Below, piece after piece: positions 2,456-18,543 of a stretch of DNA of 64,000 nt. The position numbers and the translations under genes were made by a program. Every line of letters starts with the position of its first letter. The stretch's first letter is position 1. The DNA is from Nitrospirota bacterium (lineage in GTDB: Bacteria; Nitrospirota; Thermodesulfovibrionia; Thermodesulfovibrionales; JdFR-88), in assembly GCA_014874185.1 (NCBI GenBank), contig JACWAF010000029.1, positions 1 through 64,000 of the forward strand, in the 5' to 3' direction. The notes beneath the pieces were generated by a model. That model saw only the letters and a list, made by a program, of their open reading frames with translations, was not told where the DNA came from and did no database searches.

Positions 2456-5209
2456 TTAATTCTGCAGCTTCTCTATCCTCACGGCGCAGGCCTTGTATTC
2501 GGGCGTCCCGGTGATCGGGTCCCTGTGCTCCGATGTGAGGACATTCGTGAGGGCGTCCTGGTGATGAAAGGCAAGAAAGACGTTCCCCTCCTGAGAGCGG
2601 GTGGTTACCTTTGTCTTCACCTCGATCTCCCCCCTGCGGGAGAGTACCTTTACCCTCTCCCCGTCCTTTATTTTCAGCCTTTCGGCGTCCGCTGGGCTTA
2701 ATTCCAGAAGCTCTTCCGGGAACAGCTCCATGATCCCCCTGACGCGCCTCGTCATGGAGCCGTTATTGTAATGCTCCCGCCTGCGCCCGGTGATGAGCAC
2801 CAGCGGGAAACTGCTGTCAGCCGCCTCCGCCGGGCCTTTGTGCTCCAGGGCGATAAAGCGCGCGCGGCCCCCCGGCCTCGAGAACATCTCCTGGTACAAT
2901 GTGGCCGTGCCCGGATGGTCTTTGGTGGGGCAGGGCCACTGGATCCCCCCGTCCTCAAGCCGCCTGTAGCTTATGCCCCTGTAAATCGTGGCGAGGCTTG
3001 CTATCTCGTCCATTATTTCAGAGGGGTGGTCATATTTCATCTTATGGCCCATGCGCGAAGACAACTCGCAAAGCACCTGCCATTCGGCCATGCCTGAAAG
3101 CGGCTCTATGGCCTTCCGTATCCTCTGCACACGCCTCTCCCCGTTTGTGAAGGTGCCGTCCTTTTCCGCAAAGCTTGCCCCTGGCAGTATCACGTGGGCG
3201 AAACGGGTGGTCTCAGTGGGGAAGATGTCCTGCACGACCAGAAACTCCAGTGAGCCTAGCGCCTCTCTTACATGGCGAAGGTCGGGGTCCGTCTGCGCGG
3301 GGTCCTCACCCAGGATGAAAAGCCCCTTGAAAGCGCCGTCCTTCGCCTCATCCAGCATCTCGACTGATTTGAGCCCCGGTTTGGCCGGAAGCTTCACGCC
3401 CCATGACTTTTCAAATTTCTCCCGCACGTTTGGGTCGGTTACGGACTGGTAGCCGGTGAATGTGGCGGGCAGCGGCCCCATGTCAGATGCCCCCTGGACG
3501 TTATTTTGCCCCCTCAGGGCCATTATGCCGGTCGCGGGCCTTCCTATCTGGCCGCAGACCAGGGCAAGGTTCGCGATGGCCATGGCGTTTTCGGTGCCGG
3601 TCTGGTGCTCGGTAACCCCGAGGCCGTAGAGTATCATGGCGTTTTGGGCGCCCGCGTAAATGCGCGCGGCCTTGATGAGCTTCTTCGGGGAGACGCCGGT
3701 TATCTTCTCCACCCGGTCAGGCGAATACGCCTCCACCGCCGCCCTCAGTTCTTCGAAACCCTCCGTCCTTTTCCTGATGAAATCCCTGTTGTCCAGGTCC
3801 TCTTTAAGGATGATGTGTATAAGGCCGTTCAGGAGTGCTATATTGGAGCCTGGCCGCAGGTTGAGCCATACCTCCGCATGCCTCACAAGCTCTATCTCGC
3901 GGGGGTCGGCAACGATTATCCGCGCCCCGTTTCTAATGGCCCTGTTCACATGGATGGAGACCACCGGATGCCCTTCGGTGGTGTTCGAGCCGAAGATGAA
4001 CAGCGTATCCGCATCCCCTATCTGGTTGAATGAATTGCTTGCGGCCCCCGCCCCCAGAGAAGTGGCCAGACCGGCCACGGTGGGGGCGTGTCAAACCCTG
4101 GCGCAGTTGTCTACGTTGTTGCTGCCCAGGGCGGCCCTCACCCATTTCGAGATAAGATAATTCTCCTCGTTGGTGCAGCGCGATGATGAAAAGGCGCCGA
4201 CCGCCTCAGGGCCGTATTTTTCCTTTAATTCATTAAAGCGGCTTGCCACGAGGTCCAGCGCCTCATCCCAGGAGGCCTCGCGGAAGCCCTCCCCCTCGCG
4301 GATGAGCGGGGTGGTGAGCCTGTCCGGATGGTGTATGAACTCGTAGCCGAACCGCCCCTTGATGCAGAGGCTGCCCCTGTTCACCGGGGCCTCGTAATCG
4401 GAGGTGACCTTTACCACCCTGCCCCCTTTTACATTTAAATAGAAATTGCAGCCCGTGCCGCAATAGGAGCATGTGGTCCTTATCCTGCGCAGTGAGTGAT
4501 TTCTGCCCTTTCCGATTGACTGCTTCTCGATAAGGGCCCCTGTCGGGCAGGCCGAGACGCACTGCCCGCAAAAAAGGCAGGTTTCGGGCGTAAGCGGCCT
4601 TCCGAAGGCGGTATCGGGCCTGGAGTTGAAACCCCTGCCCGTCATGGCGATTGCGCCTTTCAGCATAAGGTTCTTGCAGATATTGACGCATCTGCCGCAC
4701 AGGATGCACTTGTTCGGGTCGAAGGATATGAAGGGGTTGTCGTCCTTTACCGGAAGGTTCCACCGCTCGCCGTCGTATTTGCCGGGGGTGACTTCATACT
4801 GATATGCCAGCTCCTGAAGAGAGCAGTCCCCGGCCTTCTCGCAGCACATGCAGTCGTCGGGGTGATTGGAGAGGATCAGGGAGAGCATGGTCTTTCTCAG
4901 TTCCGTAAGGTTCGGGCTCTCGGTCGTGATCTCCATCCCGTTCTGGATGGGCGTGGTGCAGGAAGAAAGGGGCCGGTTGATGCCCTTCACCTCAACAAGG
5001 CAAAGCCTGCAACCGCCATAAGCTTCCAGGCGCTCATCGAAGCACAGGGTGGGGATGTAAATCCCCGCTTCCCTGCACGCCTCAAGGACCGTCCTGCCTT
5101 CTTCGCTGATTATTTCCCTGCCGTTTATGACCGCCTTTACCGGTTTTTTCACAATCTGCTCTCCTTCCGCTTGGACCTGACAGGGAAAGGGCCGAATTGC
5201 CCCGGTCAA
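2456..5209 (-). CDS. fdhA: Selenocysteine-containing formate dehydrogenase alpha subunit (FdhA/FdsA-like, with N-terminal 2Fe-2S and 4Fe-4S domains). The ORF track splits it at an in-frame TGA at 4091-4093.
   Basis: The upstream ORF ends in SNNVDNCARV followed by TGA. The downstream ORF continues HAPTVAGL.... This matches the E. coli FdhF selenocysteine motif NNVDCCARV-U-HGPSVAGL. The C-terminal molybdopterin oxidoreductase domains are conserved. The N-terminal start is uncertain. Confidence 0.85.
4062..4078 (-). promoter_or_regulatory. Putative bacterial SECIS hairpin (GUGGCC-GGUCU-GGCCAC) starting 12 nt 3' of the recoded UGA in fdhA
   Basis: Read from the minus-strand mRNA: UGA CAC GCC CCC ACC GUGGCCGGUCUGGCCAC. 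The apical loop GGUCU resembles the E. coli fdhF SECIS loop. Confidence 0.55.
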
Positions 5210-5459
5210 TCCCGCGAAAAATAATATAGCATAGAAAAAACCTGGCCTTCAAATTGGTTATGGCTAAACAGTCTTCCTGATTCGATGAGGAAGTTCAACA
5301 TAACTTATATGTTTTGCAACCTGAGGCTTCAATATATTCCAAGGCGGCAAATGCGCCCCTTTTTTGGCTGGCTTGGCTGGCATTGAAAAGTTCAGTTATT
5401 GCCTAAAGATATACACGATATAGACAGATTATATAAATAAAAGTCCGTGCAACCTACAA

Positions 5460-5475
5460 TGGAATTCTGCTTGCG
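5460..5475 (+). promoter_or_regulatory. Candidate sigma-54 (-24/-12) promoter TGGAATTCTGCTTGCG, about 105 nt upstream of gvpA
   Basis: The GG-N10-GC spacing matches the TGGCAC-N5-TTGC consensus. It lies in an AT-rich 370-bp divergent intergenic region. A sigma-54 activator gene is present at 22233. Confidence 0.45.
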
Positions 5476-5581
5476 TAAAAAATTTCCTCTGATAAAATTT
5501 CAATCATGAGTGGAAGAGTTTCACCGCTCAAGCGGGACTTGAGCCCGTTCCCAATCACGCAAAGGAAGGGAGGTGAACGAA

Positions 5582-5794
5582 ATGGCGGTTGAAAAGGCGA
5601 TAGGGTCCAACAGTCTCGTCGAGGTAATCGACCGGATACTCGACAAGGGCGTCGTGATAGACGCCTGGGTGAGGGTCTCTCTCGTCGGAATCGAACTGCT
5701 CGCCATTGAAGCGCGAGCCGTTGTTGCTTCCGTCGAGACCTATCTGAAATATGCCGAAGCCATCGGCCTTACGGCGACGGCTGCAGCGGCATAG
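5582..5794 (+). CDS. gvpA: Gas vesicle structural protein GvpA
   Basis: [63 protein letters not shown] is the canonical GvpA sequence. A GGAGG-like RBS lies upstream of the ATG at 5582. The ORF track started this gene at the GTG at 5573. Confidence 0.95.
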
Positions 5795-5926
5795 CTTTGA
5801 ACACGGGATGAGCTGATAAACTCTTGCCAGGTTGCCCTCGAGGGGTCCCCGAAAAGCCGGCAGGCTTTTTGGGGCAGGCCTGAGCGTGACCAGCCAAGAT
5901 TTCATTAAACCGGAGCGGAAACAGAG

Positions 5927-6553
5927 ATGGATATCCAGTTGCACGAACTTAGACAACTCGCATTGTTGACGGTATCGTCTCATGAATCCAGGATACTTGC
6001 GGCAAGCAGGATCCTTGACATGATCCACGACGGCCTTGAGAACGTGAGAAGTTTAAGGGACGAGATGAACAACGAAATTAAGGAGGCGCTGGCCGCCACG
6101 GAATCCCTGAGGCGCAAGGACTTCAACTCCATGATAAGAGAGGTGTTTGCCGGACAGGATGAAAGAGAACGGCAGATAAGGATTCTTTTCAAGACCTACA
6201 TGGAAAAGCAAAAAGAGGCGGTCGCGTTGGTGAAAAGGATGTTTTCCGAAAGGGATTCGATAGTGCCTGACGAATTCAAAAAAACCATCCTTCACATCCA
6301 GCTGGCCCATAAGGAAATAGAGGAGGAAATATGCAAACTGCTGAAGGACTTCCAGGGCGAGCAAACGGACATTGTGAAGTCGATTCGCGGTTTGTTCAAT
6401 AAACCTGAGGGCAGGCTGCCGGATTTCAAAGAGATGCTGAAAAGCATACAGGCGAAGCAGAAAGACGGCATCCAAAGGGCAAAAAAAATAACTGAAAAAG
6501 CCAAAAAGGAAAGGTTCGAATCAGACATCCCGTTGGCAGAGGCGTGCTTGTAG
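5927..6553 (+). CDS. Hydrophilic coiled-coil protein, paralogous to the next ORF, in the position of gvpC. Candidate gas-vesicle accessory or scaffold protein.
   Basis: No family recognised. It shares aligned motifs with the 6620 ORF (KDFNSMIREVFAG.. against EDFKSLQKEIAAG..). It lies between gvpA and gvpN. Confidence 0.5.
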   Translation: MDIQLHELRQLALLTVSSHESRILAASRILDMIHDGLENVRSLRDEMNNEIKEALAATESLRRKDFNSMIREVFAGQDERERQIRILFKTYMEKQKEAVALVKRMFSERDSIVPDEFKKTILHIQLAHKEIEEEICKLLKDFQGEQTDIVKSIRGLFNKPEGRLPDFKEMLKSIQAKQKDGIQRAKKITEKAKKERFESDIPLAEACL

Positions 6554-6619
6554 AGAGATGCCGGAGCGGGCTTGCATCGCCCCGGCTTTCCTTAATTAAA
6601 AGGGAAGGAGGCAAATTCC

Positions 6620-7042
6620 ATGCCGATAACAGCCGACATGAAAAGGCTGGCTGAGGACATCGAGGGATCTTTTGATGCCAGGGTGAGCGATATAGCCGGC
6701 TTGAAAGAAAACATCCACAGGATGCTCCCTGAACTCGAAAGGAGCAGGATGGAGGATTTCAAATCCTTGCAAAAGGAGATAGCTGCAGGTGTCAAGGAGA
6801 TGCAATCGGAAGTGGGCTCGATGATCGATTCATTCCACAAATGGAATGTCGATACCGCAAAGTCCCTCAGCAACATGCTGAAGGAGGACAGGGTCGCCAG
6901 GGAAAAAGAAGTGGCCGGTTTTCTCGGCGAGATAGGGGCGGACCTGAGGGATGCATCCGACACCTGGAACCGGCTGACCCTGGACATGTCCCGCAAGAGA
7001 AGCGGGAAGACAGCGCCGGCAAAACAGAAGACAAGCAAGTAG
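6620..7042 (+). CDS. Hydrophilic alpha-helical protein, paralogous to the preceding ORF. Candidate gas-vesicle accessory protein.
   Basis: A strong RBS (GGAAGGAGG) precedes it. It shares motifs with the 5927 ORF and has the composition of a GvpC-like surface protein, but lacks canonical GvpC repeats. Confidence 0.5.
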   Translation: MPITADMKRLAEDIEGSFDARVSDIAGLKENIHRMLPELERSRMEDFKSLQKEIAAGVKEMQSEVGSMIDSFHKWNVDTAKSLSNMLKEDRVAREKEVAGFLGEIGADLRDASDTWNRLTLDMSRKRSGKTAPAKQKTSK

Positions 7043-7059
7043 GGAGGCAGAGCAGATAG

Positions 7060-7977
7060 ATGGACTTCGAAGAGCTAACCACGGTTCTGGAGCCTGCGCC
7101 GTTTAAGGATTTCGTGGAAACACAGTACATCAGGGGCGTCACGGACAGGGCGCTCACCTATATCGAGGCAGGTTTCCCGATCCACTTCAGGGGTGTTTCG
7201 GGGACGGGCAAGACGACGCTGGCGCTGCATGTTGCCGGCAAGATAGGGAGGCCCGTGGTGATGCTCCACGGTAACGAGGAATCAACGGGCTCAGACCTTG
7301 TGGGCGGAGCGTATGGCTACCGGTTTAAAAAGGTGGTCGACCGCTTTGTCGCCAAGGTGTTCAAGATGGAGGAGGATATGGTCAGGCGATGGGTCGACAG
7401 CCGCCTGACCATTGCCTGCAAACACGGGTTCACGCTCCTGTATGACGAATTCACGCGTTCGAGGCCCGAGGCCAATAACGTCCTGCTGTCGGTCCTCGGG
7501 GAAAAGGTCCTCGACTTCCCGGGCGGACAGGGATCTTCGGAACAGTACCTCAAGGTCAACCCCGATTTCACCGCCATATTCACGAGCAACCCCGAAGAAT
7601 ACGCGGGTGTGTACAGGTCCCAGGACGCGCTCAGGGACAGGATGATAACGATGGACCTCGATCACTTCGACCTTGAGACGGAGGTGGCCATAACCCAGGC
7701 AAAAGCGGGCCTGCCAAAGGACGAGTGCGAGAGGATAGCAAGCGTGGTCAGGGGCTTGCGGGAATCTGGCCAGTGCGAATTTGCCCCCACCGTGCGGGCA
7801 TCCGTAATGATAGCGAAGACGCTGAGAGTGCAGAACCGCTCACCCAAAAAATCGGATGCCCTTTTCGTGCAGATATGCAGGGACATACTGGCCTCGGAGA
7901 CCAGCAGGGTCGGCTCGAAGACAAACCAGGAGAGAGTGAAAAAAACGGTGGCCGGCCTGATCGATACCTATTGCTGA
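7060..7977 (+). CDS. gvpN: Gas vesicle protein GvpN (AAA+ ATPase of the CbbQ/NirQ/MoxR family)
   Basis: Walker A (GVSGTGKTTLA) and Walker B (LLYDEFTRSRPEANN) are present. The length and context are typical of GvpN. Confidence 0.9.
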   Translation: MDFEELTTVLEPAPFKDFVETQYIRGVTDRALTYIEAGFPIHFRGVSGTGKTTLALHVAGKIGRPVVMLHGNEESTGSDLVGGAYGYRFKKVVDRFVAKVFKMEEDMVRRWVDSRLTIACKHGFTLLYDEFTRSRPEANNVLLSVLGEKVLDFPGGQGSSEQYLKVNPDFTAIFTSNPEEYAGVYRSQDALRDRMITMDLDHFDLETEVAITQAKAGLPKDECERIASVVRGLRESGQCEFAPTVRASVMIAKTLRVQNRSPKKSDALFVQICRDILASETSRVGSKTNQERVKKTVAGLIDTYC

Positions 7978-7993
7978 TCGGCCTGGAGGGAAA

Positions 7994-8317
7994 ATGATAA
8001 AGAGCGCACGCGCATTGTCCGGAGGAATAAAGGGCCCGCGGGATATAAAGGGGATTTCAAGGGAGGCGAGGCGGCCGAAAACCCAGACCGCTGTCCCTTA
8101 CGGCACGGAATTCTTCATCCTGGGGAAGTGGAAGGAAAGACTTGAGCTGGAGAATGCCTTTCTGGAGAGGCGCATGGCGGCAAACTGCAAAAAGCTCGAC
8201 GCGATAAAGGAGAAGATCGCAAGGTTTGGGGGAGCGATGCGGGCAGTGGAGGGTCCAAAAGATGAGACAGCGGAGACGAGCGGGATGAAATACAAAAAAA
8301 TGACCCTGGGATACTGA
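7994..8317 (+). CDS. Small hypothetical protein within the gvp operon
   Basis: ORF only. It is tightly spaced between gvpN and the Hsp20 gene. No family recognised. Confidence 0.4.
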   Translation: MIKSARALSGGIKGPRDIKGISREARRPKTQTAVPYGTEFFILGKWKERLELENAFLERRMAANCKKLDAIKEKIARFGGAMRAVEGPKDETAETSGMKYKKMTLGY

Positions 8318-8340
8318 TTCCGAACGGGAAGGAGACCTCG

Positions 8341-8868
8341 ATGGCAAGAAAAGAGAAAAGCAAAGAAGGCATAGATATAGACCTGGGGGTTGTCAAGCTG
8401 AGCGCGGGAGGACTGTTCAAGGGGCTTGAAAAGCTCGTGGACCTCGCGGCCAAGCTCCAGGAAGCGGGCGGACAGATAAGCAAAGAGCAGGAGATAGACC
8501 TCAGCCAACTCAAGAAGGGGATGAAGGCGGTATACGGGGTTTCAATCAGGACAGCCGTGGGCGGCGAGCCGGTGGTGGAGACCTTCGGCAATATCAAAAA
8601 GACGGAGAAAGGGCCGCTTGCGGAGGAGGAAAGGGAGCCCCTGACGGATGTTTTTGACGAAAAGGAGGAAATCCTGGTTCTGGCCGAAATCCCCGGCGTG
8701 AATGAAGAGGGGATAAAGGTCGGGATCGAAGGCGGTCAGATAGTCATATCGGCGGCGGGGACAAACCGGAAATACAGGAAAGAGATAGAAATCCCTTCAG
8801 GCGCAAAGCCGGAAACGATGACCACCAGCTATAGGAACGGAATCCTGGAGATCAGGATTAAAAAGTGA
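8341..8868 (+). CDS. Hsp20/alpha-crystallin domain protein (GvpH-like small heat-shock protein)
   Basis: The C-terminal half is ACD-like (EILVLAEIPGVNEEGIKVGIEGGQIVISAAG...ETMTTSYRNGILEIRI). The N-terminus is charged and lysine-rich. Confidence 0.7.
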   Translation: MARKEKSKEGIDIDLGVVKLSAGGLFKGLEKLVDLAAKLQEAGGQISKEQEIDLSQLKKGMKAVYGVSIRTAVGGEPVVETFGNIKKTEKGPLAEEEREPLTDVFDEKEEILVLAEIPGVNEEGIKVGIEGGQIVISAAGTNRKYRKEIEIPSGAKPETMTTSYRNGILEIRIKK

Positions 8869-9824
8869 ACGCCGTTTGCGGACTCCTCGACCCGCCGCTA
8901 AAGTTGATCCTGTTCGGCGGCAAGGGGGGTGTGGGGAAGACAACTCTTGCTTCAAGCGCCGGGGTTTATCTGGCCGAAAGGGGGAAAAGGACGCTTCTTG
9001 TCTCAACCGACCCGGCTCATTCCCTTTCGGACAGCCTGGGGATCGAGATAGGCAGTGAGACAAGAAATACGGAAATCGAGGGCTTGCATGCCCTGGAGAT
9101 AAATGCCGAAAAAGAGTTTGCGTCCTTTAAGGAACAATACGACAAGGAGCTGAGGAGCATCTTTGACACGGGCAGCTATCTGGATAAGGACGATGTGGAT
9201 TCGATACTTGCATTGCAGATGCCCGGCATTGACGAGGTAATGGGCCTCAAACAGATTATCGAGCTTGTAAGGGAAGGAAAATACGATAAATACGTACTGG
9301 ACACCGCCCCGACCGGGCATGCGCTAAGGCTTCTGCATCTTCCCGAACTCCTGGACCAGTGGATAAAGGTCGTCTCAAAGATGAGATGGAAATACAGATA
9401 CATGGTGGAAAGATTTTCGGGAGGATACAGGCCGGACGCGGTTGATGAGCTTCTTGTCACCATGAAAAAATCGGTCAAGCATATAGGAGACATTCTAAAG
9501 GACCAGAAGGCATGCGAGTTTATCGCGGTCACCATACCTGAAGATATGGCGATCAGGGAGACAGGGAGACTTATGGATTCTCTGAAGAGATATGGGATAA
9601 GGGTGCGGCAATTGATAATCAATAATGTCATCTGTCCTTCAAGCACATGCCCTTTCTGCATGGAAAGAAGAAAGGGACAGGAAAAATACATCAAGTCCGC
9701 AAGAGAGCAGTTCGGCAATCTGAATATCGTTGAGATACCGCTTCAGCAACACGAGGTAAAGGGGATCAGGGATCTTCAGAGGATGACGGGCCTTGCATTC
9801 GCGGATACGTGCCCTGCAACCTGA
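8865..9824 (+). CDS. ArsA/GET3-family anion-transporting ATPase homolog (single domain) embedded in the gvp cluster
   Basis: P-loop (LFGGKGGVGKTTLAS), STDPAHSL and the DTAPTGHALRLL signature are present. There is a C-terminal CPSSTCPFC cysteine motif. The start overlaps the Hsp20 stop. Confidence 0.85.
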   Translation: MNAVCGLLDPPLKLILFGGKGGVGKTTLASSAGVYLAERGKRTLLVSTDPAHSLSDSLGIEIGSETRNTEIEGLHALEINAEKEFASFKEQYDKELRSIFDTGSYLDKDDVDSILALQMPGIDEVMGLKQIIELVREGKYDKYVLDTAPTGHALRLLHLPELLDQWIKVVSKMRWKYRYMVERFSGGYRPDAVDELLVTMKKSVKHIGDILKDQKACEFIAVTIPEDMAIRETGRLMDSLKRYGIRVRQLIINNVICPSSTCPFCMERRKGQEKYIKSAREQFGNLNIVEIPLQQHEVKGIRDLQRMTGLAFADTCPAT

Positions 9825-9836
9825 AAAAGAGGCGGC

Positions 9837-11978
9837 TTGAACATGAACACTCAAGGTGAAGGCATATCGTTGAAGGTGAAGGAGGCGCTGCCGAAGGACG
9901 TGGGCAGGGCCATAGCCAGAATGGACCCTGAGGACATGAAGCGGCTCGGTGCTGAAGTAGGCGACATCATTGAGATCGCCGGGAAAAGGAGAGCGGCGGC
10001 AAAGGTGATGCCCTGCTATCCCGAGGAAAGGAATAAAGGGATTGTGCAGATTGACGGCATAATGCGGGAGAACTCCCAGACGGGGCTGGATGAGAAGGTG
10101 AACATAAGGAGGGCGGCCGCGGTTGCGGCGCGCAAGCTGACCCTTTCGCCCATGACCCGGATCCATCCTCTCCACAAGCTAAAGGACATGAAGTACCTGG
10201 GCTCTCTTCTGGAGGGGATGCCGCTCATCAATGGGGACAGGCTCAGGGTCAGCTTTTTCGGCGCCAGGGCGTACGATTTCAGGGCCACAGGCGTGCTTCC
10301 GCAGGGAATCGTTTTTGTAACCCCGTCGACCACGATAAACCTTGAGGCGGAAGTCCCCGAGAAGCCAAAGCACCTGAAGATATCATACGAGGACATAGGG
10401 GGGCTTCAATCCCAGATCAGAAAGATAAGAGAGATGATAGAGCTGCCTCTGAAGTATCCGCAAATATTTGAAAGGCTGGGGATTGAGCCGCCCAAGGGGG
10501 TCTTTCTTTACGGACCGCCTGGCACCGGAAAGACTCTTATTGCAAGGGCTGTTGCAAACGAGACCGAGGCCTATTTCACCCATATAAGCGGCCCCGAGAT
10601 AATGGGCAAATTCTACGGGGAAAGCGAGGCCCGCCTGAGGAGCATATTTGAAGAGGCCGAAAAAAAAGCCCCCTCCATAATCTTCATCGACGAGATCGAC
10701 GCCATAGCGCCAAAGAGGGAGGAGATGGGCGGGGAGAAACAGGTCGAAAGGAGGGTCGTGGCACAACTCCTTGCCCTTATGGACGGCCTGGAATCGAGGG
10801 GCGACGTGATAGTCATAGCCGCGACTAACCTTCCCAACCTGATAGACCCCGCGCTCAGGCGCCCGGGCAGGTTTGACAGGGAGATCCCAATCGATATCCC
10901 CGACCGGAAAGGGCGGCTTCAGATCCTCAACATCCATACCCGGGGGATGCCTCTGTCAGAGGACGTCAATACGGATAAGATTGCCGAGATCACGCATGGT
11001 TTTGTTGGCGCCGACCTGGAAGCCCTGGCGAGAGAGGCGGCCATGTCGGCCCTCAGAAAAATACTTCCGGAGATCGATTTCCAGATGGAGGAGATCCCCT
11101 ATGAGACCCTGATGCAGCTTCAGGTGACGATGGCCGATTTTCTGGAGGCGATGAAAGAGGTGGAGCCGTCCGCCATAAGAGAAGTCTTCGTCGAGGTGCC
11201 CGATGTAAGGTGGTCTGACGTGGGGGGCCTGGATGATATAAAGCAGGAGTTGCAGGAAGCGATAGAATGGCCCCTGAAATATCCCGAACTGTTCGGAAGG
11301 GCCGGCACGAGGCCTCCGAAGGGGATACTCCTTCACGGGGCCCCAGGGACCGGGAAGACCCTCATAGCCAAGGCCCTTGCCAACGAGAGCGGCGTAAATT
11401 TCATATCGGTCAAAGGCCCGAGCCTGATCTCAAAATTCGTCGGAGAGAGCGAAAAGGCCCTCAGGGACATATTCAAGAAGGCCAAGCAGGCCTCTCCTAC
11501 GATCCTGTTCTTTGACGAGATAGACAGCCTCGTCCCGAAACGGGACGGAGGAGGAGAAGCCCACGTGACGGAGAGAGTGGTGAGCCAGTTTCTGACCGAA
11601 ATGGACGGCATCGAGGAGCTGAGGGGCGTGGTGGTCCTGGCGGCCACGAACAGGCCGGACTTGATTGACCCGGCCCTGTTGAGAGGCGGCAGGTTTGATG
11701 TCCAGATGATTCTTCCTCTTCCCGATGAACGGACGCGGCTTAAGATCTTTGAAATCCATACAAGGGGCAAGCCCCTGGCTGGCGATGTCGATCTGCCCGA
11801 ACTGGCAAGACGGACTGAAGGCAGGGCGGGTTCAGATATTGAATTGATCTGCCGCAAGGCTTCCCTTCTTTCCATAAGGGAATACATCGGCCAGGAAATG
11901 AAGGCCGGGTTAGAGATTTCAAAGCGGCATTTTGAGGAAGCCCTGACGCTTCTCGAAAAGCGGGTTGCGGGGTATTAG
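9837..11978 (+). CDS. CDC48/VCP-like AAA+ ATPase with two AAA domains (N-domain, D1 and D2)
   Basis: The N-terminal double-psi-barrel-like region is present. There are two Walker A motifs (GPPGTGKT and GAPGTGKT), two DEID Walker B motifs and SRH motifs. Confidence 0.9.
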
Positions 11979-11981
11979 CGC

Positions 11982-13040
11982 ATGGAAGGTAAATATGCAT
12001 TCGGCGTCATTGAAGCACCTGAGGCAAAACTTCCCCTGCCGGAAGCGGTCTACACTGTCCCATACCGGGATATTTCGGCCGTAGTAATGGATTCAGCCAT
12101 GGTCGATTTTGCAGCCATGACCAAGGAGGCCGGGGCAAGATATCTTCTCAGGCATCAGCAGGTGCTGGAGAAGGCAATGGTTTCGCACCCAGTGATACCC
12201 CTGAAGCTCGGCACTTATGTTTCCAGTCATGCAGAGGTGATCGACGTCTTGTCATTTGGATACCGTGATTTCAAGGAGACCTTCCGCGAAATAGAAGGCA
12301 AAGTGGAAATCAATGTCGCCGCGACATGGTCTGACAAGGATTCCATTATCAGGCAGACGGCGGAGGAGAGTGAAGAGGTACGGGAGTATAAAAAGAAGCT
12401 CTTGTCGAAACCCGGGGGCGTAAACATGGAAGACCAGATGAACGCCGGACGCCTGGTCAGGAAAGCCATGGAAAAGAGGAACAGGAAAACGGCTTCCGGA
12501 ATAACAAGCGCCCTTTCGGAGATTGCGCTGGCACAGAGGACGCATGATCTCATGGACGACGGCATGATCCTGAATGCGGCCTTTCTGGTTGAACACAGGA
12601 AAATAAAAAGATTTGATTACGTCCTGAATAGATTGGACGAGGCCTATCATGGGCGAATAAATTTCAGGTGCATAGGCCCTTTACCTACATACAGCTTCTA
12701 CACCGCCGAGATAAAAAAGGTTTGTTCCGGCGAACTGGACAAGGCTAGGAAAATGCTCGGGCTCCGGGATTACCCGGTATGCAAGGACGAAATAGAAAAG
12801 GCATACCGGCAGCGCGCCCGCATGTGTCATCCCGATGTGATCGGGCATTGCATTGAAACGGGGGAGAAACGGGCCAGGAAAAAAGGACAGCCCTGTGCCA
12901 GTCCGGAAGTTGAAAGCACGGAAGAGTTCACCGAGATAAACAGGGCTTACAAGCTGCTTATGGACTGCAGCGCATCCGAAGCCTGTCGCAGAGAGGATGG
13001 AAGCGTTCTCATCGTCAGAGTAATGAGGATAAGGGGATAA
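11982..13040 (+). CDS. GvpL/GvpF-family gas vesicle protein fused to a C-terminal J-domain (DnaJ-like, HPD motif)
   Basis: The N-terminus is GvpF/L-like (YAFGVIEA...YRDISAVV...GPLPTYSFY). The C-terminus reads EIEKAYRQRARMCHPDV...EEFTEINRAYKLL, which are J-domain helices II and III with an HPD motif. Confidence 0.75.
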   Translation: MEGKYAFGVIEAPEAKLPLPEAVYTVPYRDISAVVMDSAMVDFAAMTKEAGARYLLRHQQVLEKAMVSHPVIPLKLGTYVSSHAEVIDVLSFGYRDFKETFREIEGKVEINVAATWSDKDSIIRQTAEESEEVREYKKKLLSKPGGVNMEDQMNAGRLVRKAMEKRNRKTASGITSALSEIALAQRTHDLMDDGMILNAAFLVEHRKIKRFDYVLNRLDEAYHGRINFRCIGPLPTYSFYTAEIKKVCSGELDKARKMLGLRDYPVCKDEIEKAYRQRARMCHPDVIGHCIETGEKRARKKGQPCASPEVESTEEFTEINRAYKLLMDCSASEACRREDGSVLIVRVMRIRG

Positions 13041-13041
13041 G

Positions 13042-13818
13042 GTGGAAAAATCGGGCAAATACATTTACTGCGTGATAAGGACAGAGCAGGAAAGGAATTT
13101 CGGCAATATCGGAATGGGCGGGGGCATGGGCGGGGGAGACAACGAAGTGACAACGGTCGGCCTTGGCGATCTGAGCATGGTTGTGAGCAATTCGCCTGTG
13201 AGCAAGTATCCGGTAAGCAGGGAAAATCTTCTCGTCCACCAGAAGGTGGTCGAGGAGGTGATGAAAGAGTTTACCGTCCTGCCGGTTCGGTTTTGCACGA
13301 TCGCTCCCGCCGCCGGCAAGATCCGGAACCTCATCGAAAGAAGAGGGAAGGAATTCAAGACCCTGCTCCGTCAGATGGAATTCAAAATAGAATTGGGAGT
13401 AAAGGCGATCTGGAGAGATATGGACAGGGTATTCAGGGAGATCGTGGAAGAGGACAAGCAGATTGCTGCTCTCAGGCGGAAAATCTCCGGAGACGGCAGA
13501 ACCAGCGTCCAGACAAAAATGGAGCTGGGCAGGATGGTCGAGCGTGCTCTGGCGGAAAAAAAGGAAACGGAATCCGGTGCAATCATGTCTACCTTGAAGA
13601 GAGCGGCATTCGACTGGAAGCCCGGCCGGACCTCCGATGACAAGATGATCATGAACGCCTCTTTTCTGGTTGACAAGGCCAGGGAGAAGGAGTTCGACAA
13701 CATCGTGGAGGATTTCAGCGAGAACTACAAGGAAAGAATAAAGTTCATGTATGCCGGCCCCCTGCCCCCATATAATTTTGTGAGCGTGGTAATCCATCCC
13801 GAGGAATGGGAACTATAG
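13042..13818 (+). CDS. GvpF/GvpL-family gas vesicle protein (second copy)
   Basis: YIYCVIRT...GDLSMVVSNSPV...AGPLPPYNFVSV. The architecture is typical of GvpF/L. Confidence 0.8.
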   Translation: MEKSGKYIYCVIRTEQERNFGNIGMGGGMGGGDNEVTTVGLGDLSMVVSNSPVSKYPVSRENLLVHQKVVEEVMKEFTVLPVRFCTIAPAAGKIRNLIERRGKEFKTLLRQMEFKIELGVKAIWRDMDRVFREIVEEDKQIAALRRKISGDGRTSVQTKMELGRMVERALAEKKETESGAIMSTLKRAAFDWKPGRTSDDKMIMNASFLVDKAREKEFDNIVEDFSENYKERIKFMYAGPLPPYNFVSVVIHPEEWEL

Positions 13819-13828
13819 GGGGAAACGG

Positions 13829-14059
13829 ATGCTCCTGATAGACGACCTTCTGCTGTTGCCGCTTAGGGGTGTTATCGGGATATTTAAAAAGATAAACGAA
13901 ATGGCGGAAACGGAATTATCGGACGCGGACCGCATACGGGAAAAGTTGATGGAAGCCAGACTCAAATTCGAGCTGGATGAGATGAGCGAGGAAGAATATG
14001 AGGAGCTGGAGACAGAGCTTCTGGCCCGTCTGGATTCCCTGAGGGAAAGCCAGTCATAA
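13829..14059 (+). CDS. gvpG: Gas vesicle protein GvpG
   Basis: MLLIDDLLLLPLRGVIGIF... This N-terminal motif and the acidic coiled-coil C-terminus are typical of GvpG. Confidence 0.75.
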   Translation: MLLIDDLLLLPLRGVIGIFKKINEMAETELSDADRIREKLMEARLKFELDEMSEEEYEELETELLARLDSLRESQS

Positions 14060-14069
14060 AAGAGGAGGC

Positions 14070-14348
14070 ATGGACATGTCAACGATAATCGAAGAGGCGG
14101 ACAAGATAGTCATCGACTTCCTGAAAAGAATACTTCACTCTGACGAGGGCAAGATAAAGATCATCAAAACCGCTAAAACCGACGTGGGATGGAGCGCGGA
14201 AGCGGAGGTCTTCGAAGAGAGTGGTTTCATAAAAAGCCTGGGCCTCCCAACCAGGGTGCAGGACAGAAATGTATATAAGGTAATGCTCGATAACAACCTC
14301 GATGTCATGTCCTATGAACAGGTGGACAGGGAGGACGGTAGAGAGTGA
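14070..14348 (+). CDS. GvpO-like gas vesicle protein
   Basis: The C-terminal pattern GWSAEAEVFEE...VQDRNVYKVMLDNNLDVMSYEQVDRED resembles the GvpO core GW..V.VEV....Y.I.LD..G.V..Y...R. Confidence 0.55.
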   Translation: MDMSTIIEEADKIVIDFLKRILHSDEGKIKIIKTAKTDVGWSAEAEVFEESGFIKSLGLPTRVQDRNVYKVMLDNNLDVMSYEQVDREDGRE

Positions 14349-15172
14349 AGATATCCGGGGAATCAACGCCTGAGCATCTGGTATATCTTTTCTGCCTGGC
14401 TGATAAAATCCCGGAAACGGGCACTGAAACAGGAAAAGCCGGCAAGGATATAACTTACTTTTTAAATAACGGCCTCTATGCGGTTACGGGCATTGTGGCA
14501 AGTGATGATTTCTGCGGGGAGAACCTGAAAAGAAACCTGAACGATTTCAAGTGGGTTGAAGAGAAGGTCAGGTTTCATGAGCGGGTCGTGGAAAAAATGA
14601 TGGCATCCTCCACCGTGATACCGTTCAAGTTCGGCTCGGTCTTCAAAACGGAAGAAAGCCTGAAGAAGATGCTCGATGAATACATCGATGCATTCATGGA
14701 GATTTTTAAAAAGCTGGAAGGGAAACGGGAATGGGGAATAAAGATCTTCTGTGACCGCAAGGCATTTGCCCGATCAATTGAAAAGGGCGGTCATTGTGAC
14801 AGGCCGGAAAAAGAGATTGATATTCTCTCCACGGGGCGGGCTTTTTTAAACAGGAAAAGACAGGACCAGCTTATGTCAGAGCTCGTGGACGTGAAAATAA
14901 ACGAGGCCAGACTCGAAATTTATGAGGTGCTGATGGGGCACAGCACTGAAGTCCGCATCAGTGGTCTTTTGCCTGCGGAAGTAACCAGCCGGAAAGAGGA
15001 CATGGTGTTCAATGCCGCTTTCCTGGTTGATAACGGCATGGCGGGCGCTTTCATCGACGAAGTGGAACTTTTTAAGGATAAATACCGCGGGTTTGAAATG
15101 GAATGCACGGGTCCATGGCCACCTTATAATTTCTGCGCCATTAAAGAGCATGAATCAGCAGATAGCAAATAG
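14345..15172 (+). CDS. GvpF/GvpL-family gas vesicle protein (third copy)
   Basis: LVYLFCLAD...LYAVTG...ends GPWPPYNFCAI, parallel to the other GvpF/L copies. Confidence 0.8.
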   Translation: MKISGESTPEHLVYLFCLADKIPETGTETGKAGKDITYFLNNGLYAVTGIVASDDFCGENLKRNLNDFKWVEEKVRFHERVVEKMMASSTVIPFKFGSVFKTEESLKKMLDEYIDAFMEIFKKLEGKREWGIKIFCDRKAFARSIEKGGHCDRPEKEIDILSTGRAFLNRKRQDQLMSELVDVKINEARLEIYEVLMGHSTEVRISGLLPAEVTSRKEDMVFNAAFLVDNGMAGAFIDEVELFKDKYRGFEMECTGPWPPYNFCAIKEHESADSK

Positions 15173-15737
15173 GAATGTCTGTCTGTCTGAAGCGATAGAC
15201 GCCGTTCTGAACAAGGGCGTTGTCGTCAGCGGAGACATAACTCTATCCGTTGCTGATGTCGATCTGGTCTTCGTGGGCCTGAGGGCGCTTCTGGCTTCGG
15301 TCGACGTGGCAAACAGGATTAGAGGGGGGCCGGGCCCGCTTGGCGCGCCGCCGTCATCGGGAAAAACCGTTCCGGGCGGAAGGCCTGATCCCGTAGAGGC
15401 CTGTTCTTCTTCATGCTCCGAAGAAAGCCGGCTCGCGGTGCTTGAAGGGGGCGTGGAAAAAGCCGCAGTCCCTCTTCCACGCATTGAGATGGAAGAATCG
15501 AAGCCCGAGCGGGGGCTTGCGAAACTGGTCCTCACCGTCGTGGACCTTGTAAGAAAGCTGATGGAAAAGCAGGCCATCCGGAGGATGGACGGCGGGAGCC
15601 TGACGGAAGAGGAGATAGAACGGCTTGGAAACACCTTCGCGAAACTGGAAGAGAGGATGGAAGACCTGAAAAGGGTCTTCGGCCTCGAAGGGGAGGAACT
15701 CGAATTGGACCTTGGTCCTTTGGGAAAACTCACATGA
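15150..15737 (+). CDS. GvpJ (GvpA-family) domain fused to a GvpK-like domain
   Basis: The N-terminus reads LSEAIDAVLNKGVVVSGDITLSVADVDLVFVGLRALLASVD (GvpJ/A fold). A Pro/Gly/Ser linker follows. The C-terminus reads GLAKLVLTVVDLVRKLMEKQAIRRMDGGSLTEEEIERLG (GvpK signature). The proposed ATG at 15150 overlaps the previous gene by 23 nt. Confidence 0.7.
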   Translation: MNQQIANRNVCLSEAIDAVLNKGVVVSGDITLSVADVDLVFVGLRALLASVDVANRIRGGPGPLGAPPSSGKTVPGGRPDPVEACSSSCSEESRLAVLEGGVEKAAVPLPRIEMEESKPERGLAKLVLTVVDLVRKLMEKQAIRRMDGGSLTEEEIERLGNTFAKLEERMEDLKRVFGLEGEELELDLGPLGKLT

Positions 15738-15783
15738 AAACCGGGGGAGAGCGAACATAAATGAAGACCAAAGGGAATAACTG

Positions 15784-16077
15784 ATGGCCGAACAGCTGGT
15801 TCATTCCATACAGGCCACAAACCTTGCCGACATATTGGAACGGGTCCTGGACAAAGGCATAGTCATTGCCGGAGATATCCGGATCAATCTCGTCGAGGTC
15901 GAGCTGCTGAACATAAAACTGAGGCTTCTCATAGCCTCTGTGGATAAGGCAATGGAAATGGGAATAAACTGGTGGCAGACGGACCCCTATCTTTCCTCTA
16001 AGGCGCAGAAGCTGGAAGACGAAAACCGGATGCTCAAGGAGCAGTTGGAACGGCTTGAAAAGAATCCGCTTGCCTGA
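15784..16077 (+). CDS. GvpA/J-family minor gas vesicle protein (GvpS/GvpM-like)
   Basis: NLADILERVLDKGIVIAGDIRINLVEVELLNIKLRLLIASVDKA. Confidence 0.8.
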   Translation: MAEQLVHSIQATNLADILERVLDKGIVIAGDIRINLVEVELLNIKLRLLIASVDKAMEMGINWWQTDPYLSSKAQKLEDENRMLKEQLERLEKNPLA

Positions 16078-16082
16078 GGCCC

Positions 16083-16772
16083 ATGCGCACCCTCCTGTAT
16101 GTGCCTATTATCCATATGAGCGCGGACCTTGGTTCGCTTGCCAAGAATTTTACAAACCGGGGCATAAAGGATCTGGGGGAGGATGTCTGGGAAGAACACA
16201 GGAAAACCGTTTCGATGTTCTGGGAGTCGATAACGGCTTTTTTTGAGGCTATGCCCGTAGCGGGATTCAAGATATACCAGGACGGAATGATCGCAAATGG
16301 CGAGATAGCTGAAAAGATAATAGAGGCAGGCGTAAGAAGCGGCAGCAAGAATTACGAGATCATAAGGAGACTCATGGGGAAAGGGGCTATTCTTATAAAA
16401 ACGGAAGATCTGGCCCTGGTAAAAGAAGAAAGAGACTGGCTGCTTCGGATAACCCAGGCCAGAACGCTCCCTGAAAAATTGAAGGCTTATCTTGGATTCA
16501 GGGGGGCAAAAAACCATCTTCTGAAAAGAAGGGACAGCTATATAGCCCAAACGATAAACAGGACCCTCGGGCAGGAGGAGACAGGGATTTTATTCATAGG
16601 GGCTTACCATGAAATAATTCCCCGGCTTGATCCGGACATCGCGGTCAAAGAAATAAAAGAAGTTCGCAAAGTGAGGGAATATCAAAAAAGGCTGCCATAC
16701 CAGGGCAGAAAAAAAGATGAGCTATTTGAAGAATTGTCCCATTATCTAATCAGACCTGTTAACAAGAAGTAA
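16083..16772 (+). CDS. Hypothetical protein, last gene of the gvp operon (6 nt after the preceding stop)
   Basis: ORF with operon-like spacing. No recognisable family. Confidence 0.45.
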   Translation: MRTLLYVPIIHMSADLGSLAKNFTNRGIKDLGEDVWEEHRKTVSMFWESITAFFEAMPVAGFKIYQDGMIANGEIAEKIIEAGVRSGSKNYEIIRRLMGKGAILIKTEDLALVKEERDWLLRITQARTLPEKLKAYLGFRGAKNHLLKRRDSYIAQTINRTLGQEETGILFIGAYHEIIPRLDPDIAVKEIKEVRKVREYQKRLPYQGRKKDELFEELSHYLIRPVNKK

Positions 16773-16843
16773 TTTACAAAAGGCCGCCTTTAATTGAGTC
16801 AGGCGGAATGCAATGGCCTATAAAAGCGAAAAGGGGCAGGCAA

Positions 16844-16908
16844 AATCTTCTACCCCCTTGTTTTTTAAAGTGAGCCGTGCAGGATTCGAACCTGCGACCC
16901 GCTGATTA
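16844..16908 (-). repeat. Direct repeat: duplicated 3' half of tRNA-Lys (about 48 nt) plus about 17 nt of 3' flank. Distal att site of the islet.
   Basis: gtgagccgtgcaggattcgaacctgcgacccgctgattaagag is identical to 21939-21981. The flank ccccttgtttt..aaa is also shared. Confidence 0.85.
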
Positions 16909-17079
16909 AGAGACGCTTTATAGGGATTATGCAAGTGCTTGAAAATACCAGAAAAAGCTTAAAAAACAGGAGGTTTATAAGCTACAAATTTGAATGACGT
17001 ACAATGATTTCTAGCGAATTCTGATATTTTTTTTTCATGTTTTTTTCACAGTGCATATAAAAACTAACAGGAGTTTACT

Positions 17080-17371
17080 ATGGAAAAATTAATGAATATT
17101 GACGAGGTGGCGGAGATGCTGGGAGTAACAAAAGGTGCCATTTATGCCTGGGTCTATAAAAAAAAAGATTCCCCATATAAAGCTCACCAAGAGGCTCCTA
17201 AAGTTCAGGGAGAAGGATATAATGGACTGGCTTTCTCAAAAATCGGTCAGCGCCGATGCGCCGGCCGCGGGCAGAAGGAGCTGGCATTATACAAGGCCGT
17301 CTTCCGGCCTGTCTGATGACAACATCGAAAGGATCATCAGGAACGCCAAAGCGGAAGTTTTTAAAAAATGA
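17080..17371 (+). pseudogene. Excisionase/AlpA-like HTH DNA-binding protein, frameshifted in an A9 run (about 17155-17164)
   Basis: Frame 1 reads MEKLMNIDEVAEMLGVTKGAIYAWVYKKK. Frame 2 continues IPHIKLTKRLLKFREKDIMDWL.... Together they reconstruct a typical HTH_17/excisionase protein. Confidence 0.6.
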
Positions 17372-17514
17372 CGCCTTTGAGAATCGACGGGGCATTCGTG
17401 TGTCTCTGCGCCTTCTCTATAGAGACCGCCACAAGTCTGCTTCCGGGGGGTTGTTGTTAATTAAAGAAAAGGATATAATTAGACTAGTCTGACTAGTAAA
17501 GAGGTGAATTTCAT

Positions 17515-17766
17515 ATGAGGACTTGGCAATTGCAGGAAGCAAAAGCGCGTTTGAGTGAGGTGATAAAGCAAGCCTCGAAGGAGGGACCCCAGACCATTAC
17601 GATGCGCGGAGAACCCACCGCTGTTGTGCTTTCAAAGGGCGAATATGAACGGCTCAAGCATCCAAAAGGAAGTTTTGTGGATTTTATGCGGAAATCGCCT
17701 CTTTACGGAGTGGATATTGACCTGAAGCGGGAGCAGACATTGACCCGGGAATCTGATATTTCATGA
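17515..17766 (+). CDS. Type II antitoxin (Phd/YefM or VapB-like)
   Basis: MRTWQLQEAKARLSEVIKQASKEGPQTITMRGEPTAVVL. The gene overlaps a PIN toxin gene. Confidence 0.75.
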   Translation: MRTWQLQEAKARLSEVIKQASKEGPQTITMRGEPTAVVLSKGEYERLKHPKGSFVDFMRKSPLYGVDIDLKREQTLTRESDIS

Positions 17767-18182
17767 GCTACCTGCTTGATACCAATGTTGTTTCAGAAAC
17801 AATACGGCGTCATCAAAATAAGGCTGTGGTCGAGTGGCTTGAACAGGTTCCGGCCGAAGCGCTCTTCATAAGCGTTTTGACGCTGGGCGAAATCCGGAAG
17901 GGCGTTGAGGCGCTTACAGATAAAAAAAGAAGGGAAAAGTTGCGCCTTTGGCTGGAGCGCGAGCTCCCGGTCTGGTTCGAGGACCGGGTGCTCCCGGTTG
18001 ACCTTGCCGTGGCCGAACGATGGGGCAGACTGCTTGCCCAAGCTGGCCGTCCGGTCCCTACCATCGACAGTCTTCTTGCCGCCACAGCATTGCATTATGA
18101 ATTGCGGCTTGTGACCCGGAATGCAAGAGATTTCGATTATCCAGGGCTTGAAGTGGTTAATCCCTGGCAGAACGCGACTTGA
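17763..18182 (+). CDS. vapC: PIN-domain toxin VapC
   Basis: MSYLLDTNVVSE...TLGEIRKG...LVTRNARDF. The fold is PIN/VapC-like. The start overlaps the antitoxin stop. Confidence 0.8.
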   Translation: MSYLLDTNVVSETIRRHQNKAVVEWLEQVPAEALFISVLTLGEIRKGVEALTDKKRREKLRLWLERELPVWFEDRVLPVDLAVAERWGRLLAQAGRPVPTIDSLLAATALHYELRLVTRNARDFDYPGLEVVNPWQNAT

Positions 18183-18206
18183 ACGTATATTGGAGGTGAG
18201 CAATGC

Positions 18207-18543
18207 TATGGTTAAAGTTCTTGCCAAGGGGCAGATTGTCATCCCGAAAGAAATAAGAGAAAAGGCCGATATCCATGTTGGAGATGAAGTTGAACTGCAA
18301 ATGACATCGAAAGGCATCATGGTCCTTAGCAATAAATTGCAAAATGGCTCACCCGCCCATACAATTAAATTAAGGGAATTAAGTTCCACTAAGCGGTTAG
18401 TCAATAGTGACGCAAATTATGAACCCGAGAAAATCAGCAAACTCAATCATCCTTACGGACTGGGGAGCGGATTGCGAGAGTCTTGGCCAGAGTCCAGAGG
18501 CCGTTCTCTACGAATTGCTGCTCCTATCTCTTCTCTACGATAA
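18207..18543 (+). CDS. AbrB/MazE/SpoVT-type antitoxin-like DNA-binding protein (extent uncertain)
   Basis: MVKVLAKGQIVIPKEIREKADIHVGDEVELQMTSKGIMVL is a swapped-hairpin barrel motif. The tail of this ORF overlaps the 18407 ORF. Confidence 0.45.

Follow-up and report, generated by a model that had tools for sequence, protein, structure and literature searches.

A GvpF protein with a C-terminal J-domain

The stretch of DNA analysed here, which we call the window, comprises 64,000 nucleotides from a Nitrospirota bacterium (GenBank assembly GCA_014874185.1, contig JACWAF010000029.1, positions 1 to 64,000 of the forward strand) and contains a tightly packed gas vesicle (gvp) operon on the plus strand. 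Within this operon lies the gene that we refer to as gvpF-J, which starts 3 nt past the stop codon of a gene for a Cdc48-type ATPase and ends 1 nt before the start of the next gvpF/L gene (Table 1). An original prediction, made from the nucleotide sequence, had described an open reading frame (ORF) at 11982-13040 (+) as a full-length GvpF/L-family protein with a J-domain at its C-terminus. That ORF was found at this position and encodes 352 aa, and in the single protein both domains scored above their Pfam thresholds; all the evidence presented in this work is computational. The N-terminus of GvpF-J aligned with those of all homologues, with M1 conserved in at least 90% of a 56-sequence family alignment. 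The protein is thus ordered as a GvpF body, a J-domain and a short conserved beta-hairpin.

The GvpF body matched PF06386 with 184.8 bits, against a gathering threshold (GA) of 23.6, and covered positions 1-244 of the 245 of the model. The full-length protein was modelled with AlphaFold2 on the 56-sequence alignment, with a mean predicted local distance difference test score (pLDDT) of 92.8 and a predicted template modelling score (pTM) of 0.84. A Foldseek search with this model returned GvpF structures only, including 6L5D_B (E=3e-14, template modelling (TM) score 0.81) and 4QSG (E=1.4e-13, TM 0.74), and these crystal structures aligned only to the N-terminal ~246 residues of the model. As the larger domain dominates such a search, a separate model of the tail was required for the J-domain. 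The body of GvpF-J was closer to GvpF than to GvpL (88 vs 34 bits). Sequence score, two-domain fold and location in a gvp cluster all place the protein in the GvpF/L family.

The Pfam DnaJ domain (PF00226) was detected at aa 268-328 with 33.1 bits in the full protein and 37.3 bits in the tail alone, above the GA of 27.8. A profile built from 31 family tails matched the J-domain of Escherichia coli DnaJ (1BQZ, 1XBL, 5NRO_B) at E=1e-16 and a total of 76 distinct J-domain sequences in the Protein Data Bank (PDB), so that, as judged from sequence, the match is far above chance. When the tail was modelled separately (pLDDT 77.5), its four best PDB matches were all J-domains: 4J80_A (root-mean-square deviation 1.6 Å), 5NRO_B (TM 0.76), 2QSA and HscB 4IT5. 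The sources of these matches include DnaJ from Thermus thermophilus (4J80), dnj-2 from Caenorhabditis elegans and the DnaJ of a DnaK-DnaJ complex (5NRO_B). In the AlphaFold2 model, helices I, II and III of the J-domain span residues 249-258, 268-282 and 308-330, with helices II and III predicted to form an antiparallel hairpin and the His-Pro-Asp (HPD) tripeptide located between them. HPD is the element of J-domains that contacts Hsp70. The two hallmark segments quoted in the original prediction, EIEKAYRQRARMCHPDV (aa 270-286) and EEFTEINRAYKLL (aa 314-326), belong to this region, but the domain begins before the last 70 aa to which it was then assigned and spans approximately aa 249-330. Helix II, KDEIEKAYRQRARMC, contains five basic and three acidic residues, and DnaJ Y25 and K26 have their conserved counterparts in Y275 and R276. 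In the clade of the window the charge of this helix is canonical in part only, and the family consensus ('eeikkAYrkla') is nearer to the canonical one than is the protein of the window.

The segment between the HPD motif and helix III (aa 286-307) was modelled with low confidence (pLDDT 61-68 for the full-length protein and <50 for the tail), and the C-terminal strands at 334-336 and 342-349 were confident in both. The family shares a C-terminal motif, '...C..F.E.EF..NAIIVKVRE'. A confident beta-hairpin beyond the J-domain indicates that the latter is apparently embedded in the protein, and not simply appended to it. Secondary structure and confidence values suggest that this hairpin may pack back onto the sheet of the GvpF body. 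Cysteines are found directly before HPD (C282, 12825-12827) and in the region 12972-12992 (C331 and C337). Many family members likewise have Cys directly in front of HPD ('CHPD') and two Cys past helix III ('EYC....C.F'), none of them invariant; close to the J-domain, these could form a site for metal binding or redox reactions.

Regarding the type of J-protein, Pfam identified the J-domain alone beside GvpF, with no Gly/Phe-rich (G/F) region, zinc finger or DnaJ C-terminal domains, and the NCBIfam DnaJ equivalogs gave weak partial matches (17-24 bits, against cutoffs of 377-619). Consequently, GvpF-J is assigned to the class C J-proteins and is not DnaJ itself.

Conservation and origin of the fusion

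A search of 5.8 billion proteins yielded 98 relatives, about 88 of which carry both Pfam domains, with identities of 30-77%. The closest named relative (66% identity) comes from a Nitrospiraceae/Nitrospirae metagenome-assembled genome (MAG). Most of these records are labeled 'GvpL/GvpF family gas vesicle protein' and one, from JGI, 'GvpL/GvpF/DnaJ domain'. Only 12 columns of the 56-sequence alignment are invariant, and three of them make up the HPD motif, present in 56/56 sequences. In addition, 384 relatives were detected when each GTDB species, represented by one genome, was scanned with an 11-sequence family alignment as query. The best 80 of these 384 loci all belong to MAGs or single-cell genomes, from Nitrospirota, Planctomycetota, Omnitrophota, Ignavibacteria, Elusimicrobia, Latescibacter, Zixibacteria, Acidobacteria, Actinomycetota and others. 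Genome and metagenome loci whose GvpF ORF has a tail of 60 aa or more all contain the HPD motif in that tail (84/84).

Finally, a profile search against 1.84 billion cluster representatives (50% identity) produced at least 150 matches, each of at least 290 bits and nearly all of them full-length. Among 122 further representatives with a recognisable tail, HPD was kept in 120, the other two being one QPD variant and one apparently frameshifted sequence. Such a pattern of invariance implies purifying selection on the Hsp70-contacting motif. The QPD variant is P0163, and P0086 shows 'LSYQSNVD' and no HPD; such degenerate motifs are rare in the family, and from their sequences both are possible natural loss-of-function variants.

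A neighbour-joining tree without bootstrap was built from 61 GvpF/L bodies of 21 clusters. In this tree the 20 J-fused bodies group together in a single clade, to which none of the 41 paralogues lacking the J-domain belongs, suggesting one old fusion that has been kept ever since. An identical protein with the same neighbours was found on two independent Logan assemblies. The original prediction would have fallen if a sequencing frameshift had joined two genes, and no such join was detected: the fusion recurs as a continuous ORF in all 84 loci, which come from many phyla, and the at least 150 clusters at 50% identity agree with this. A frameshift or misassembly origin was rejected on the basis of the two assemblies, the 84 uninterrupted ORFs and the 56-sequence alignment.

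Hsp70 genes in related clusters

Neither an Hsp70 gene nor a second J-domain was detected in the 64-kb window, where tblastn gave chance matches only. The gvp cluster of the window also contains no CXXCXGXG zinc-finger gene, as the only such motif in the window lies at 43996, in an unrelated ORF of 508 aa. A different situation was found in related clusters, which we designate by L numbers. Locus L005, whose family member is 32% identical, encodes a 616-aa DnaK-type Hsp70 (15488-17338) directly behind its last gvpA-like gene, with an Hsp20-like gene next in line; this Hsp70 scored 714 bits with NF001413, over a cutoff of 648. In a further cluster subtype (L023, L040, L051 and L071) an Hsp70 gene follows the last gvp gene on the same strand and runs off the 10-kb flank.

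As a reciprocal test, the DnaK fragment of L051 was used as query, which revealed that many phyla possess short DnaKs (~580-590 aa) of one family. Four of these were sampled, at 87%, 82%, 73% and 67% identity, and all four genes belong to gvp clusters, each as the next gene behind a gvpA-like one (Table 1). GvpF-J is encoded upstream in three of them (L089, L090 and L091), and in L092 the flank ends before that position. The DnaKs of gvp clusters retain an R-I-I-N-E-P-T segment and a VLLDVTPLSLG linker, which we take to correspond to J-domain contacts of E. coli DnaK (R167, N170 and T173) and to its interdomain linker (5NRO). Clusters with a DnaK often also encode Hsp20s and small CXXCXGXG proteins that match the zinc-finger region of DnaJ, with a second J-protein in L003, and GrpE was not seen in any cluster. 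A private DnaK paralogue thus accompanies GvpF-J in two or more cluster subtypes. The link to Hsp70 that the original prediction had drawn from the J-domain is therefore supported by the invariant HPD, by the modelled J-domain fold and by the DnaK paralogue of related GvpF-J clusters.

As side observations, the short-DnaK clusters often contain double-length ArsA proteins (650-814 aa), a radical SAM/B12 protein and TPR proteins, and in L092 a tubulin-family gene (PF00091, 15875-17053) lies on the same strand a few kb downstream of the gvp/DnaK cluster.

The gvp operon and its surroundings

The genes that accompany gvpF-J are listed in Table 1, together with their frequencies in 88 fetched loci as counted by tblastn. 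The order Hsp20, ArsA, Cdc48, GvpF-J, GvpF, GvpG and onwards is kept in Nitrospirota, Syntrophorhabdaceae and many other lineages, with the Cdc48-type gene usually immediately upstream of gvpF-J.

Table 1. Domains of GvpF-J, genes of the surrounding gvp operon, and short DnaK genes of related loci (in the coordinates of each locus)
Feature	Coordinates	Strand	Evidence and remarks
GvpA, major shell protein, presumed client	5573..5794	+	Canonical GvpA translation; first gene of the cluster, position conserved in relatives
Coiled-coil-looking charged ORF, 208 aa	5927..6553	+	No Pfam match
Coiled-coil-looking charged ORF, 140 aa	6620..7042	+	Between gvpA and gvpN
GvpN-like AAA_5 ATPase	7060..7977	+	Pfam AAA_5 E=2e-16; 47/88 loci
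Hsp20/GvpH-like small heat-shock protein	8341..8868	+	Pfam HSP20 E=3e-7, GvpH weak; 54/88 loci
Get3/ArsA/TRC40-family ATPase	8865..9824	+	PF02374 E=4e-82; TIGR00345 272 bits (cutoff 135); 56/88 loci
Cdc48-type double-ring AAA+ ATPase with CDC48_N domain	9837..11978	+	Pfam; TIGR01243 954 bits (cutoff 803); 75/88 loci
gvpF-J gene, 352 aa	11982..13040	+	ATG start, TAA stop, stop codon included
GvpF body of GvpF-J, aa 3-240, two alpha/beta domains	11988..12701	+	Pfam PF06386 (GvpL_GvpF) E=3.7e-54
J-domain of GvpF-J, aa ~249-330	12726..12971	+	Pfam DnaJ, profile match, tail model
HPD tripeptide, H283 P284 D285	12828..12836	+	CAT CCC GAT, read from sequence
Clade-specific insertion, aa 286-307	12837..12902	+	Between HPD and helix III; Lys/Arg-rich, two Cys
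C-terminal extension of GvpF-J, aa 331-352	12972..13037	+	Cys pair and terminal hydrophobic/basic beta-hairpin ('VLIVRVMRIRG'); family alignment, models
GvpF-like paralogue, no J-domain	13042..13818	+	PF06386 E=4e-62; sister clade to the J-fused proteins
GvpG	13829..14059	+	PF05120 E=3e-19
Weak GvpO-like	14070..14348	+	Operon member
GvpL-like paralogue (third GvpF/L)	14345..15172	+	PF06386 E=2e-50; GvpL 75 vs GvpF 51 bits
GvpJ-like (Gas_vesicle domain) and GvpK fusion	~15150..15737	+	Single ORF
GvpA/J-like	15784..16077	+	Operon member
Short DnaK, L089	10001-11767
Short DnaK, L090	10001-11779
Short DnaK, L091	10001-11755
Short DnaK, L092	10001-11746

The two charged ORFs between gvpA and gvpN might encode GvpC-like outer-surface proteins or other gas vesicle proteins. 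The likely start of the GvpJ-like/GvpK fusion is the ATG at 15150, which overlaps the preceding gene by 23 nt; the same fusion is present in L007 (197 aa) and L008 (177 aa), and the two are separate genes in other relatives. The operon ends with an ORF of 229 aa (16083-16772, +) that has no Pfam match and could be an unrecognised gvp gene. ORFs comparable in size and position, the only properties considered, and with no Pfam match on record, are found in L007 (14184-14870) and L008 (14973-15680).

A promoter/terminator scan of 5200-18400 gave counts at the level of shuffled sequences (13 vs 9.9±3.1 and 16 vs 15.5±3.4, respectively) and was uninformative on operon boundaries. Downstream of the gvp cluster, the window encodes an ATPase_2/DUF234/ArsR-HTH protein (20030-21412, +) and a sigma-54 activator-like protein with a Fis-type helix-turn-helix (22233-23543, +). 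In L006 and L008, sigma-54 activators and response regulators are encoded just upstream of gvpA. This hints at sigma-54-dependent control of gvp operons of this kind.

Elsewhere in the window, the region 2456-5209 (-) encodes a molybdopterin oxidoreductase/formate-dehydrogenase-like alpha subunit, split into two ORFs by an in-frame TGA at 4091-4093 ('...NVDNCARV-TGA-HAPTVAGL'). This TGA presumably marks the selenocysteine position of FdhF-type enzymes, and the region is probably one selenoprotein gene, not two genes.

Discussion

The extremely hydrophobic GvpA has to stay soluble until it enters the growing gas-filled shell, and most of what is known about the roles of GvpF/L and other accessory proteins comes from interaction maps. 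Haloarchaeal GvpF, alone among the accessory proteins, binds GvpA; it also contacts GvpL, GvpG, GvpH and GvpI, and it was proposed to keep GvpA soluble before its insertion (PMC7688916). The data presented here establish the architecture of GvpF-J and its conservation, the identity and fold of its J-domain, and its genomic linkage to DnaK. On these grounds we think it likely that GvpF-J acts as a specialised class C (type III) J-protein, in which the GvpF body would hold a Gvp client and the J-domain would recruit and activate DnaK.

According to this model, the GvpF body would bind hydrophobic GvpA and other accessory Gvp proteins, as suggested by haloarchaeal GvpF, and the J-domain would dock on ATP-bound DnaK/Hsp70 through its HPD loop and basic helix II. 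Docking would trigger ATP hydrolysis, with Hsp70 clamping the neighbouring Gvp client, and the aggregation-prone shell protein would thus stay soluble and be passed into the growing vesicle. Here we infer GvpA binding, the stimulation of ATPase activity and the direction of client flow. GvpF-J probably acts together with the Hsp20, the Get3/ArsA-like ATPase and the Cdc48-type AAA+ protein of the operon. The Hsp70 partner in this genome would be encoded outside the window, and in other lineages a dedicated DnaK paralogue belongs to the gvp cluster. A J-fused GvpF whose HPD is under strong selection makes it a testable hypothesis that Hsp70 works in vesicle biogenesis or turnover with GvpF as its client adaptor, and the presence of a private DnaK in the gvp cluster across whole lineages strengthens this hypothesis.

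Several observations weigh against such a role. The window has no Hsp70 gene, so a partner has to be assumed for this type of cluster; moreover, no Hsp70 was found within ±10 kb in ~20 clusters of the same layout with full flanks, for which a DnaK encoded elsewhere would have to serve. Binding of GvpA by the body of GvpF-J is extrapolated from haloarchaea. Two features of the protein could weaken DnaK binding, namely the replacement of the equivalents of DnaJ R22 and R27 by E272 and Q277, and the insertion of ~20 aa after HPD, which is present in the clade of the window and missing from most family members. The Foldseek E-values of the tail were modest (0.012-0.5), at a probability of 1.0. Lastly, the carriers are known from MAGs and single-cell genomes, in which gas vesicles can be deduced from genes alone.

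A broader interpretation, which we put forward tentatively and rate as rather doubtful, is that GvpF-J is the adaptor of a complete proteostasis machine dedicated to one organelle and encoded in the gvp operons of many uncultivated anaerobes, with shell insertion or extraction being driven by ATP and coupled to Hsp70 and Cdc48. The parts of this putative machine would be the small heat-shock protein (sHsp), the Get3/ArsA-like ATPase and the Cdc48-type unfoldase, joined in many lineages by a private DnaK and split-off DnaJ zinc-finger proteins. Proteins of the Get3 kind shield hydrophobic segments, and the Get3/ArsA-like ATPase could therefore be a carrier of GvpA, in analogy to the targeting of tail-anchored proteins. 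If this interpretation were true, the vesicle shell would not self-assemble under the guidance of Gvp proteins alone, and the system would be the first bacterial Hsp70-Cdc48 bi-chaperone system.

A role in recycling instead of assembly is the strongest of the alternatives, albeit an unlikely one by itself. GvpF-J would then direct Hsp70 to shells that have collapsed or were misassembled, along with the sHsp and the unfoldase of the Cdc48 type. GvpA would be extracted from such shells for reuse or degradation, in a dedicated disaggregase comparable to DnaK-DnaJ-ClpB. The Cdc48-type gene lying 3 nt upstream of gvpF-J and conserved in 75/88 loci, as well as the Hsp20 of the same operon, would fit such a function. 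However, Cdc48 is missing from some GvpF-J clusters (L068, L071 and L081), and gvpF-J lies among assembly genes (gvpF/L, G, J and K), encoding an orthologue-like copy of a GvpA-binding assembly factor. The two roles are not mutually exclusive, and disaggregation or recycling may add to the assembly role or replace it.

A regulatory function appears improbable. In this case the J-domain would bring DnaK onto GvpF or a nucleation complex, and the amount of free DnaK under proteotoxic stress would gate the initiation of vesicles. Gating of this type is known from the control of sigma-32 and of HspR by DnaK. It would be consistent with the conserved hydrophobic/basic C-terminal strand, which resembles a DnaK-binding peptide by inference only, with the early and sub-stoichiometric action of haloarchaeal GvpF (PMC7688916), and with the proteotoxic stress that gas vesicle expression causes in heterologous hosts (PMC12848028). 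A dedicated DnaK encoded in the cluster is nevertheless more in keeping with a folding helper that acts stoichiometrically than with a stress sensor. Even less probable is a J-like relic that has no function with Hsp70 and would act as a purely structural element, mediate dimerisation or bind another partner than Hsp70. J-like domains without Hsp70 activity do exist, and the insertion and the two non-basic substitutions in helix II of the clade of the window, together with the lack of HPD in P0086 and the QPD of P0163, point in this direction, but near-universal HPD across many phyla is hard to explain without Hsp70 contact, and DnaK paralogues co-occur in related clusters. Conservation of HPD and the cluster-encoded DnaKs thus make both the regulatory role and the inert domain less likely. 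An artefact joining gvpF to a separate small J-protein gene has a negligible probability in view of the two independent Logan assemblies, the 84/84 loci and the confident hairpin past the J-domain.

Our preference remains for GvpF-J as a client-specific J-protein that would bring DnaK to the shell proteins of gas vesicles. This could also have practical consequences. As acoustic reporter genes in E. coli, many gvp clusters do not work or prove toxic, and the host factors that they lack may be matching chaperones, namely a J-fused GvpF with its cognate DnaK, Cdc48, Get3-like ATPase and sHsp.

Comparison with known systems

In our search of the full-text literature, the coverage of which leaves out most subscription journals, we found no published J-domain on GvpF/L and no report of Cdc48, Get3/ArsA or DnaK genes in gvp clusters. 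The only remark on 'DnaJ' in a gas vesicle paper was an unsupported comment on the similarity of GvpC (PMC2270826). J-fused GvpF is thus apparently undescribed in the literature, while being abundant in databases and widespread in uncultivated bacteria.

With GvpF, as known from Microcystis aeruginosa (4QSG), Anabaena PCC 7120 (6L5D) and haloarchaeal GvpF/GvpL, the N-terminal 240 aa of GvpF-J share PF06386 and the two-domain fold, and its gene shares the location in a gvp operon beside gvpG and further gvpF/L paralogues. GvpF-J differs in its ~110 additional C-terminal residues, which form the J-domain and the beta-hairpin, and in belonging to a separate GvpF/L clade. The view that characterised GvpF/L proteins lack this fusion, advanced in the original prediction, agrees with the solved GvpF chains, which have 237-244 modelled residues, and with the lack of any paper describing it.

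The chaperone genes of the gvp clusters resemble the bacterial DnaK-DnaJ-GrpE/ClpB/sHsp disaggregation network in bringing together an sHsp, a J-domain and an AAA+ unfoldase, to which relatives add a DnaK. They differ from it in that the AAA+ protein is of the Cdc48 type and not ClpB, no GrpE was seen, and the functions of DnaJ are apparently split between GvpF-J and the CXXCXGXG zinc-finger proteins. Furthermore, in the gvp clusters the set is embedded in an operon for organelle biogenesis.

Class C J-proteins tether Hsp70 to a dedicated client or site, as exemplified by HscB, whose dedicated client is the Fe-S scaffold IscU. HscB, DjlA, Sec63, auxilin and Mycoplasma TopJ combine, like GvpF-J, an HPD-bearing J-domain with an unrelated module specific for a client or site, and GvpF-J shares with this class the lack of a G/F region, zinc finger and DnaJ C-terminal domain. 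HscB was among the structural matches of its tail, and TopJ and ActJ were among the weak NCBIfam matches. Unlike these proteins, GvpF-J has its J-domain at the C-terminal side, followed by a conserved hairpin and, in the clade of the window, with an insertion after HPD; its client module is the GvpF fold, which we found reported for no J-protein. Both parent kinds of protein are known, and what is new here is the architecture for GvpF and the client module for class C J-proteins.

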